Notes: a model not told the origin generated them from the sequence alone. DNA of 64,000 nucleotides from an uncultured Bacteroidota bacterium (GCA_903829015.1 CAIKOJ010000098.1:1773-65772); one strand, 5' to 3'. Shown: positions 25,216 through 34,808, numbered from the stretch's first letter. Numbers and translations: made by a program.

Positions 25216-25224
25216 AATTTCATT

Positions 25225-25504
25225 GTCTCCACCCAGTGTCCTTTTTCAGGCACTCGGGGGCATAAGAGCACTGAAGTTGAAATGTTTTCTTCACCTGTTA
25301 CTATCTAGCTACGTCCCGGCATCGGTCGCTACAGTACTTTACCTGATCCCAAACCTTTTCCCATTTTTTTCGCCAAACAAATGGTCGCTGGCATACTACA
25401 CATATTTTGGTAGGCAGGTCGCTTTTTTTTACTGTTTTGTTATTATGCTTCATCTTCGTTTGTGCGTTACCCCGTCTCCACAGAGTGTTCTATTTCAGGC
25501 ACTC
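25225..25504 (+). repeat. 31-bp imperfect direct repeats flanking the DUF2256 gene
   Basis: 25225-25255 vs 25474-25504 match at 27/31 (GTCTCCAC..AGTGT.CT.TTTCAGGCACTC). Confidence 0.85.
25301..25453 (-). CDS. DUF2256 domain small protein (50 aa, missed by the ORF track)
   Basis: Manual translation [50 protein letters not shown]. Confidence 0.88.
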
Positions 25505-25690
25505 AGCGGCATTAAAGGATGTATAAAGAATTACTTGAACTCCATTGAGTGATACTAGCTAGTGCCAAAGAAAAGCCAAGGTTTGTTGGAGGGCCCGTGT
25601 AAGATAAATTAAGTCGCGCTGTAAGCATACCTCTTTTCTCCCCAAAATAGTTATTTTTAACCCTATATTTTTTCTCCAACCAATAAGCAG

Positions 25691-28888: not shown

Positions 28889-28893
28889 GATCG

Positions 28894-29436
28894 CTATAGT
28901 TTCCAACTGTCCTGAACATAGAACCAGAGTGAAACCAAAGCGACGTTAATAAAGCTGGTAAGGAAAATCTTTGCAACAAGATTTGCTCTGTGAGTTTTGG
29001 AAAATTGTATTTTCCAAATAATAAACGTGAACATTATTGATGCCAGGTATGGAAAGCCTAATCCTTGTTTGTCTCGTACCTCACCATAATAGAAGGTTGA
29101 TCCATAATACAATTCAAACCAAGCTAAGAAGCCAATTGTAAAGGCAGAAAAAAGGCAAATTACTTTTGCAAATTTCTTCTCTCTAAAGGTCATTAAATAA
29201 AAAGAAATTAGGAAAATACTTCTGGCAATAAATCCAATCGCAAATGTAATTAGGATACCAGTGTTTGTATAATAAGCTTTGAAGGGATTTTCATTTGGCA
29301 AAGAATAGTTGAGAAAAACGCCTATGCAATAACCCAGCAAACTAAGAAGAGTTAGAGTTGCTATACAGAGTTCAAAATAATTGTTTGCGCGACGATTATG
29401 TGCCTCTGAGATATTATGGGTTATATATCTATTCAT
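28894..29436 (-). CDS. Hypothetical multi-pass membrane protein
   Basis: 180-aa AT-rich ORF with about five hydrophobic segments. Confidence 0.6.
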   Translation of the reverse strand: MNRYITHNISEAHNRRANNYFELCIATLTLLSLLGYCIGVFLNYSLPNENPFKAYYTNTGILITFAIGFIARSIFLISFYLMTFREKKFAKVICLFSAFTIGFLAWFELYYGSTFYYGEVRDKQGLGFPYLASIMFTFIIWKIQFSKTHRANLVAKIFLTSFINVALVSLWFYVQDSWKL

Positions 29437-29553
29437 AAAAGCCCTTTAAGTAAATGTAGTAAAATTCGTCTTGAGTAAATAGTGCACTTATAAACATTAC
29501 CAAAGAAATTCTTTTTCCAATTCCCTGCTACATCATACATTCGCAGCCTTAAG

Positions 29554-32515: not shown

Positions 32516-33736
32516 ATGATAGATATTGTGGTGCCTACGGTTGGTGAGTCGATCAGTGAAGTGAGTTTGGTGAAATGGCTGAAAAAGGAAGGCGATTATG
32601 TGAACAGAGACGAGGTTTTGTGTGAACTGGAGTCGGAGAAGGCGACGTTTGAACTGAATGCAGAGCAGGCGGGTGTGCTGAATATTGTGGCTCAGGAAGG
32701 AACCACACTCAATATTGGTGACCTTGTGTGTAAGATAGACGAAACTGCTGCAAAGCCTGCGGGGACTCCTGAAAAAGAAGTGTCTGCCGCAAAAGCAGCA
32801 ACTGCGCAACCGGAACCTAAAAAGGAAACAACTAAAGACGCTCCCAAAAGTGAACTGAAGGCTACCCCTGTTGCCGCAGCAATAATGACCGACAAGCAAG
32901 TGAAGCATACCGAAGTAAAGGGTTCGGGACCTAAAGGAAGAATATTGAAGCATGATGTGCTGGAGGCATTAGCTCATCCGGGCCGTAAGGGTGGTGATGA
33001 AGCTTTTAGCCGTGAAGTGAAAAAAGAAAAGATGAGCAATCTGCGCAAAACAGTTTCGCACAGGCTGGTAGAGGCTAAGAACAGCACTGCGATGCTCACT
33101 ACGTTTAATGAAGTGGATATGTCGCGTATCATGGAGATACGCAAACAGTATAAAGATACTTTTAAGGAGTCGCACGGTGTGAACCTGGGCTTTATGTCTT
33201 TCTTTGTTAAGGCATGTTGTATGGCGTTAACGGAGTATCCTGCAGTTAATGCGTATGTAGATGGTGAGTCGCTGATCTTCCACGATTACTGCGATATTTC
33301 GATTGCGGTTTCTGCACCCAAGGGGCTTGTAGTACCCATTATCCGTAATGCAGAGAGCCTGTCTATGGCCGATGTGGAGAAGAAGGTTGTGGAACTGGCA
33401 ACCAAGGCGCGGGAAAACAAACTGACCCCGGACGAAATGACCGGCGGCACTTTTACCATTACCAATGGAGGTGTGTTTGGCTCTCTGATGTCTACGCCTA
33501 TTCTCAATATCCCACAGTCGGCAATACTGGGTATGCACAAGATCCAGGACAGGCCAATGGCCATCAACGGGAAAGTGGAAATACGCCCCATGATGTATGT
33601 GGCACTCAGCTACGACCACCGTGTAATAGACGGACGTGAGTCGGTTGGATTTCTGGTACGTGTAAAAGAACTGCTGGAAAACCCTGAATTATTACTGATA
33701 GGAAAGGATCCGGTGAAGGCGTTGTTGGAGCTGTAG
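32516..33736 (+). CDS. sucB: 2-oxoglutarate dehydrogenase E2, dihydrolipoyllysine succinyltransferase
   Basis: Lipoyl domain ELESEKA, E3-binding domain, YDHRVIDG. Confidence 0.96.
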
Positions 33737-33750
33737 GTAAGGGGCTCAGG

Positions 33751-33933
33751 CTACTTTAACCATTTCTTTAGGCGTTTCTTTGCTTCTTCTTTTGAAGCAA
33801 CAAGCCCCGCGTCTGACTGTGCTATACCTAATCGTACTTTTTCAAGAAATACAATTTTCTCAATCGCTGTTTCCGCATTAAATTTTTCGGGTAGCAGTTT
33901 AATTGATTGCATCACCTCTTTCTTTGTCAGCAT
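33751..33933 (-). CDS. Small antitoxin-like protein (orphan, no adjacent toxin)
   Basis: MLTKKEV..I..LPEKF......IVFLEKV..G..Q...G...S.EEAKKRL.KW resembles Bacteroidota antitoxins that usually precede RelE/ParE toxins (recognition from memory). Confidence 0.55.
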   Translation of the reverse strand: MLTKKEVMQSIKLLPEKFNAETAIEKIVFLEKVRLGIAQSDAGLVASKEEAKKRLKKWLK

Positions 33934-34021
33934 AAACGACTGATTGTTTATTCAAGTTTAAGGAAAATATCTGAAAAACAGCTAACTTCAATAGACTGAA
34001 TTATTCGCGAAACATCACGAA

Positions 34022-34051
34022 GACCCGTTGAAGGCGTTGTTGGAAATTTAG
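34022..34051 (+). repeat. Degenerate duplicate of the sucB 3' end
   Basis: GACCCGTTGAAGGCGTTGTTGGAAATTTAG (DPLKALLEI*) vs 33707-33736 GATCCGGTGAAGGCGTTGTTGGAGCTGTAG (DPVKALLEL*). Confidence 0.85.
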
Positions 34052-34088
34052 ATAGTGGGGGTTAGGTCTGACGGTATAATTTGTGACC

Positions 34089-34808
34089 CTATTCTTTCAC
34101 CTTCAACACTTTCAGCGCATTTTGTGCTGCTACCTGGCCGGCTTCTTTTTTGTTGAAGCCGGTGCCTTCTGCAACGAGGTTACCATCTATCATGATGCCT
34201 ACTGTGAACATTTTTCTGGTGCCGTCCATTTTTTCGTCGAGGGTATCGAAGGTGAGTACTGAACTCTGGCGCTGTGCCCAACTGAGCAGCTGGTTTTTGT
34301 AGTTGGTATCTGTGCTCTCCATAGTATCCAGATCTATGTAGGCACGTATGATCTGGTTGAGGATGAACTTACGGGTCTTAATAAATCCCTGGTCTAGGTA
34401 AACCGCGCCTATCAAGGCTTCCAGCGCATTGCCAAAGATATGGCTGCGGCTCAGGCCACGGTCGTTTTGGTTGTACTGCACCATTTTATTGAGGCCCATG
34501 CGCAAAGCCACATTGTTCATCGTCTCCCTGCGCACTATGCGTGAGCGCAGCTCAGTCAGGTAACCTTCGGGCTGGTAGGGATATTTCTTGAACAGATATT
34601 CTGCTATGATCGCGCCCAGTATGGCATCGCCCAAAAACTCCAGACGCTCATTGCTGTTGTTGGCATCTTCAGGTTTTGACCTGTGCATGAATGCTAGCTG
34701 GTAATAGACCATATTACCGGGAGTGAATCCCAATAAGTGTTCTAGCTGCAGTAGTAACTGCCTGTCGGACGAATTTTTGTTTAAGATGCGATTGATCAGG
34801 CGCCGCAA
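34089..34808 (-). CDS. rnc: Ribonuclease III
   Basis: NERLEFLGDAIL signature and dsRBD. Confidence 0.96.
   Translation of the reverse strand: MRRLINRILNKNSSDRQLLLQLEHLLGFTPGNMVYYQLAFMHRSKPEDANNSNERLEFLGDAILGAIIAEYLFKKYPYQPEGYLTELRSRIVRRETMNNVALRMGLNKMVQYNQNDRGLSRSHIFGNALEALIGAVYLDQGFIKTRKFILNQIIRAYIDLDTMESTDTNYKNQLLSWAQRQSSVLTFDTLDEKMDGTRKMFTVGIMIDGNLVAEGTGFNKKEAGQVAAQNALKVLKVKE

Follow-up and report, generated by a model that had tools for sequence, protein, structure and literature searches.

Foreign DNA carrying a lone antitoxin-like gene between two copies of the sucB 3' end in a Chitinophagaceae bacterium

Insertion with long target duplication has been described for restriction-modification (RM) gene units (Nobusato et al. 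2000, Gene 259:99; Furuta, Abe and Kobayashi 2010, PMC2853133). The criteria used in the later study are a flanking repeat of more than 30 bp which aligns to one copy in a related genome, an insert of less than 20 kb, the lack of any other mobile element, and a cargo of restriction and modification genes; double-strand breakage was suggested by its authors as the origin. Among the cases reported there (PMC2853133) are H. influenzae loci whose 46-bp repeats reach into the ends of the genes HI0105 and HI1589. A duplicated gene end also accompanies e14 and phage 21 in the 3' end of the E. coli icd gene, where the terminus in use after integration comes from the element (PMC6379469). Orphan antitoxins, left by the decay of toxin-antitoxin (TA) systems, and the idea that they serve against addiction are well documented in a survey of the Klebsiella pneumoniae complex (PMC7192599).

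The locus described here is the sucB-rnc junction of a Chitinophagaceae bacterium, contained in a window (the whole stretch of DNA analysed) of 64,000 nt. Foreign DNA is inserted between the two genes and carries only the antidote gene of a TA pair (Table 1). As in the RM cases, this is a small selfish unit with no mobility gene, and the repeat that flanks it is unique in the genome. The two repeats, T1 (67 nt) and T2 (71 nt), both exceed 30 bp and align to just one copy in a relative with an empty site (L051 6192-6229; the site is empty in L051-L055 and G053); the insert between them is 245 nt long, contains one 60-aa ORF and holds no other mobile element. The repeat overlaps the 3' end of the neighbouring gene, as it does in H. 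influenzae. The locus differs from the RM cases in its cargo, a type II TA remnant from which the toxin is gone, and in its repeats, which are ~80% identical and include a replaced patch, whereas most published repeats are near-identical. Because the cargo is a toxin-antitoxin remnant this is not an RM case; by analogy, the locus seems to work like the RM class while carrying another type of addiction module.

Table 1. Features of the sucB-rnc junction, numbered from the first nucleotide of the window
Feature	Position	Strand	Remarks
sucB (2-oxoglutarate dehydrogenase E2, 406 aa)	32516..33736	+	Pfam PF00198, PF00364, PF02817; intact, clade-typical C-terminus
T1, gene-proximal copy used by sucB	33684..33750	+	last 53 nt of sucB plus 14-nt trailer
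Toxin-frame stub ATGGTTAAAGTAGCCTGA (MVKVA, stop)	33746..33763	-	alignment with intact pairs L056 and L057
Orphan antitoxin gene, putative, ParE-associated family, 60 aa, full length	33751..33933	-	partners of homologues are PF05016
Cassette upstream region TTTCCTTAAACTTGAATAAAC (relatives: TTTCGTAAACTTGTATAAA)	33934..33978	-	conserved with intact TA loci
17-nt junction segment	33979..33995	.	no match to cassette relatives, sucB or rest of genome
T2, displaced rnc-side copy (relic)	33996..34066	+	in frame TELFAKHHEDPLKALLEI, stop; continues directly into ancestral spacer
16-nt patch CGCGAAACATCACGAA in T2, replacing 13 nt ACTGATAGGAAAG	34006..34021	+	T1/T2 comparison
Remainder of ancestral sucB-rnc spacer	34067..34088	.	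homologous to L051 spacer
rnc (RNase III, 239 aa), convergent with sucB	34089..34808	-	Pfam PF14622, PF00636, PF00035

The initial annotation of this DNA had noted that the end of sucB recurs ~315 bp downstream, DPVKALLEL-stop reappearing as DPLKALLEI-stop, and both pattern counts and alignment bear this out. The gene ends in CTGAATTATT ACTGATAGGAAAG GATCCGGTGAAGGCGTTGTTGGAGCTGTAG, and the second copy, situated 312-315 nt downstream of the first, reads CTGAATTATT CGCGAAACATCACGAA GACCCGTTGAAGGCGTTGTTGGAAATTTAG (33996-34051). The composite pattern CTGAATTATT-N(10-20)-GAYCCGKTGAAGGCGTTGTTGGA has exactly two occurrences in the 64-kb window and none across 100 shuffles, and a local alignment between the left and right flanks of the insert reaches z = 12.5 against shuffles. 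The upstream sequence previously seen to be shared at 33684 and 33996 is the 10-nt CTGAATTATT. The duplication is thus real, and its extent is larger than was first described, since it runs ~14 nt beyond the stop codon into the trailer. Outside the patch T1 and T2 are ~80% identical, with a longest exact run of 16 nt; within it the 13 nt at 33694-33706 of T1 have become a dissimilar 16 nt in T2. The reading frame of T2 is still open, with two in-frame indels, conservative changes (V to L, L to I) and an F codon that may be compared with the LFGK tails of other members of the genus. No further occurrence of the duplicated repeat and insert was detected in the rest of the genome.

That the two copies bracket an insertion, as originally proposed, was confirmed by an empty site in the three closest lineages. 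The nearest sucB proteins are 97% (P0002) and 91% (P0003, P0004) identical to that of the window. The set examined for the empty site comprised five contigs and the closest species genome (G053), which together represent three lineages: L051, with a sucB identity of 97% to the window; L052-L054 with G053, at 91%; and L055, also at 91%. In every one of these the sucB stop is followed by 35-37 nt and then by the rnc stop, with no ORF and no repeat, and common to all three lineages is a neighbourhood in which tex-crcB-sucB is convergent with rnc-fabF-acpP. Using BLAST, L051 6192-6229 aligns to both copies in the window, and T2 passes into a spacer homologous to that of L051. Since the relatives have a single-copy empty site and T2 is continuous with the ancestral spacer, the 312 nt from 33751 to ~34066 are a lineage-specific gain. 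Relatives had been expected to show either an empty site or a larger island at this junction: the former was found, and no larger island with the relic was present in 29 genomes of the genus. A recombination breakpoint at the junction was also considered and discarded, as identity to L051 (87-95% in sucB, ~94-95% in rnc and 97-99% in fabF) shows no sharp switch and tracks the conservation of the genes.

In the wider genus (L003-L021) the gene that follows sucB varies by species: many have a glyoxalase/VOC-like gene there, with icd behind it, and the remainder have unrelated genes. Direct adjacency of sucB and rnc is restricted to the small clade to which the window belongs, the two genes usually not being neighbours in the rest of the genus. 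Several species possess a hairpin of the CCCC-TAAA-GGGG type directly after the sucB stop. The rnc homologue at G017:C22:50438-51148 (L064) is reported with one in-frame TGA.

Which of the two termini is ancestral can be judged from the same relatives, and the gene-proximal T1 proved ancestral-looking and the rnc-side T2 degenerate. T1 matches L051 at 50 of 53 coding positions (3 differ), and its C-terminal tail is identical to those of L051-L055. Most of the derived changes are held by T2, namely V to L, L to I, the trailer changes and the patch; T2 also retains two ancestral bases (GAC, GAA) that are altered in T1. Judged by position, T2 is the original end, since the old spacer and rnc lie next to it; judged by sequence, T1 is the conserved copy. 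Both copies read GTTGTTGG, where L051, L052 and L055 have GTTGCTGG, that is, a derived T is common to T1 and T2. Taken jointly, this shared base and the unbroken passage of T2 into the host spacer speak for a descent of T1 and T2 from the lineage's own sequence, and against T2 as a terminus brought in by an element.

The patch is a separate matter. With a divergence from L051 of only about 5-10%, it cannot be the product of decay by point mutation and needs an extra event, which counts against the history that we favour below. Its sequence is absent from the rest of the genome, and the exact 22-mer is absent from metagenome contigs. Nor was the peptide pattern KHHEDPxKALLE encountered in the genome contigs of ~185,000 species (one genome each). 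A foreign sucB terminus was rejected, the searches with the pattern, with the 22-mer and in the bacterium's own genome all having come back empty. One possibility, by analogy, is short-patch illegitimate replacement, as described for Acinetobacter in a preprint (bioRxiv 10.1101/2023.11.22.568220).

The insert contains 35% G+C compared to 44% for the window, and the sole ORF between the two copies lies on the minus strand. This protein matched nothing in Pfam or NCBIfam and no PDB sequence, and a profile built from 32 family members likewise matched nothing in PDB or Pfam. The AlphaFold (AF2) model consists of three helices (pLDDT 82), with no Foldseek match at E <= 0.001. An hhalign comparison of the family with a PF09720 member of the same genome was negative or sub-threshold. 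The C-terminal part of NCBIfam NF050811 gave weak matches in six of 10 distant members (13-17 bits against a cut-off of 60). In common with the NF050811 ParD/RelB-type antitoxins, the family lies upstream of, and overlaps, a PF05016 ParE gene; it differs from them in having only 60 aa with three predicted helices, no ribbon-helix-helix N-terminus and no PDB fold match.

Gene context is more informative. In a 5.8-billion-protein collection the two closest homologues (L056 and L057) are 80% and 78% identical, and each is followed, with a 13-nt overlap, by a 104-aa gene recorded as PF05016 ParE_toxin; when we scanned the L056 partner against Pfam ourselves, it matched at E = 2.5e-16. The same antitoxin/ParE pair is found at five loci in other species of the genus (L024, L026, L027, L029 and L030), and a 94-96-aa ParE-like ORF follows each of eight more distant homologues in the genus (27-37% identical). 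Across homologues from 80% down to 31% identity, the usual position is directly upstream of a PF05016 ParE gene with the 13-nt overlap. The family is a large one without a name: an exhaustive profile search yielded 2012 cluster representatives at E <= 0.001 and 306 at E <= 1e-10 in a 1.8-billion-protein library. Because its homologues are consistently paired with PF05016 toxins, we therefore read the 60-aa ORF as a probable ParE-type type II antitoxin, from gene context and not from homology to a named family. The initial annotation, which had called the ORF antitoxin-like, is upheld on these terms: its basis is the pairing with ParE, and the PDB, Pfam, NCBIfam and fold searches with the protein of the window were without match.

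All 16 invariant residues of the family alignment are kept in the window, and the ~45 nt upstream of the antitoxin ATG are homologous to the same region of intact cassettes; 33934-33978 is presumably the promoter or operator of the antitoxin cassette. A promoter and terminator scan, which does not model Bacteroidota promoters, gave no signal beyond the chance level. At the ends of the insert, the only inverted repeats or hairpins were short pairs of the kind expected by chance. The synonymous sites of the antitoxin gene are saturated, so that dN/dS says nothing on selection since the loss of a toxin.

In the intact pairs the toxin ATG lies inside the last codons of the antitoxin gene, and the window retains this overlap as a 5-codon stub; similarity to the toxin genes ceases right at the antitoxin stop codon. 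The earlier view that the antitoxin is orphaned was substantiated. There is no toxin between the copies, and tblastn with four partner toxins against the 92.6%-complete genome gave no hit below E = 0.1. The suggested search for unpaired toxins also turned up none: each of the four PF05016 genes of the genome is situated behind its own, different antitoxin gene, leaving no unpaired toxin available for the antitoxin of the window.

Toxin loss is frequent in the family (L022, L023, L025, L028 and L031). At L025 and L028 toxin stubs of 40-55 nt persist, and at L023 a broken toxin; L031 is a pseudogene, and at L022 there is no toxin. L022 (G062) and L023 (G003) are orthologous, with antitoxin genes that are ~99% identical, and the ParE gene of G003 survives in broken form. 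At L022, 146 unrelated nt stand in place of the toxin region and begin exactly at the antitoxin stop, which makes this pair a second case of the sharp boundary seen in the window. The locus resembles the orphan antitoxins of the Klebsiella survey (PMC7192599) in possessing an intact antitoxin without its toxin, a product of TA decay that could protect against incoming toxins; it differs in that the family is without a Pfam or NCBIfam model and its putative antitoxin role is assigned by context only.

The history that we favour, with a probability of roughly 0.6, is the insertion of a ParE/antitoxin cassette with a long target duplication and without a recombinase, followed by deletion of the toxin. 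After the split from the closest sampled relative, a small AT-rich type II TA cassette, consisting of promoter, 60-aa antitoxin and ParE toxin, would have entered the short sucB-rnc spacer. No recombinase would have taken part, and ~67 nt or more of the target (53 nt of sucB and 14 nt of trailer) would have ended up on both sides. Selection would then have maintained the normal C-terminus in the copy attached to sucB, while the rnc-side copy, being non-coding, would have decayed, the 13-to-16-nt replacement patch included. A deletion extending to the antitoxin stop would have removed the toxin, and perhaps the inner end of T1 as well, leaving an intact antitoxin gene with its upstream region. 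At present this gene is most likely either a neutral remnant or a protection against incoming cognate ParE modules; the initially suggested action in trans or as an anti-addiction module is speculative. The repeats now share at most 16 identical nt, so that homologous recombination between them would presumably remove the insert only seldom. Several observations besides the patch count against this history. An intermediate of the form T1-toxin-antitoxin-T2 was not found. The breakpoint lies 0-3 nt from the antitoxin stop, a coincidence of ~1% for a random deletion in a 315-nt gene. No flanking duplication was found around other cassettes of the antitoxin family, so that within the family this mode is seen at only this locus.

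A one-step capture of a foreign fragment with no more than the antitoxin gene and its promoter, through illegitimate or homology-facilitated illegitimate recombination with joints staggered by ~67 nt, would dispense with the toxin at this site altogether. It fits almost as well as the two-step history, given that the cassette begins exactly at the antitoxin stop without any toxin-derived base, that other bacteria often have orphan antitoxins between unrelated flanks (PMC7192599), and that the 10-nt CTGAATTATT at the T2 boundary could be a microhomology. A captured fragment that ends exactly on a stop codon is, however, just as coincidental as a deletion breakpoint there, and the closest homologues are all in full pairs or derived from them; on balance we regard this capture as possible and rather unlikely. 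A chimeric join in the assembly, of two strains or of two loci, has in its favour that the genome is a metagenome-assembled genome (MAG) in 225 contigs. Common assembler word lengths exceed 16 nt. Because the repeats share 16 exact nt at most, which renders a false join through them improbable, and three independent relatives are collinear with the locus on either side, such an artefact is hardly credible.

The island proposed initially, a large integrative element that used a site-specific recombinase to enter the 3' end of sucB, brought a replacement terminus and was later reduced by deletion to the antitoxin, would make the two copies attL and attR. A duplicated gene 3' end around foreign DNA is indeed what such elements leave (PMC6379469), and an imported terminus would suit the open frame of T2 with its two in-frame indels, conservative changes and LFGK-like F codon. 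Here, as with e14 and phage 21, a duplicated 3' end brackets foreign DNA, the gene is intact and a pseudo-terminus stands at the far side. Yet e14 is a prophage that has an integrase and a fixed att site, whereas the sucB insert lacks a recombinase, its site does not serve repeatedly and sucB uses the host-like copy. No recombinase was found in or near the insert or in larger versions at the same site, and the 245 nt of the insert hold neither an integrase nor any other element gene. In a scan of sucB loci from genus, genome and metagenome collections, 0 of 177 others had a downstream copy of their own sucB 3' end above background; as only the window stood out among the loci scanned, sucB was rejected as a recurrent integration site. 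Likewise 0 of 29 rnc loci in other genus members had a relic beside them, and the genes between sucB and rnc in G001, G004 and G017 are unrelated and without a relic. The host-like copy is proximal to the gene and the odd copy distal, the opposite of the e14/icd arrangement; a derived base is common to both copies; and KHHEDPxKALLE is encoded by none of the genomes searched. For nothing but an intact gene to remain, such an element would moreover need two precise deletions, or a single one if the cassette lay at the extreme margin of the island. With no recombinase, no relic at other loci, a host-like T1 and the shared derived base all standing against it, the island with an element-borne terminus is very unlikely, and insertion of a TA cassette with long target duplication is the reading that we retain.

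The empty site in a 97%-identical relative makes this a clean natural example. On the favoured history it would show a selfish TA module entering a 35-nt spacer between housekeeping genes without a recombinase and with damage to neither gene, and then losing a toxin that it would once have carried; insertion with long target duplication would thereby be extended beyond restriction-modification genes. A widespread small protein family without a Pfam model gains a probable role through gene context only. The function of sucB and rnc is unaffected, and taken alone the finding is a modest one. More speculatively, and with considerable doubt on our part, TA cassettes, those of this 60-aa antitoxin/ParE family included, may spread in compact chromosomes without a recombinase by the RM-like route of long target duplication, landing at gene ends and leaving the genes unbroken; two independent loci (the window, and G062 compared to G003) at which the loss of the toxin begins exactly at the antitoxin stop would hint at a recurrent, perhaps selected, route to free-standing anti-addiction genes.

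Two other intervals of the window also contain small genes. Between a PD40/Tricorn-like gene and tex, the region 28889-29490 holds a 180-aa membrane-protein ORF (28894-29436, minus strand). The corresponding place in L051 (770-1984) is occupied by two small two-gene modules, one with a PF05016 ParE toxin. Comparison of the two indicates a quick turnover of small accessory genes in the spacers of this clade. At 25224-25510, just past the stop of a plus-strand gene, lies a 50-aa ORF (25301-25453, minus strand) flanked by ~40-nt direct repeats (25224-25262 and 25471-25510) with a spacing of ~247 nt, a layout like that beside sucB. This unit is present in the closest species genome (G053) at 84% identity and is therefore older.
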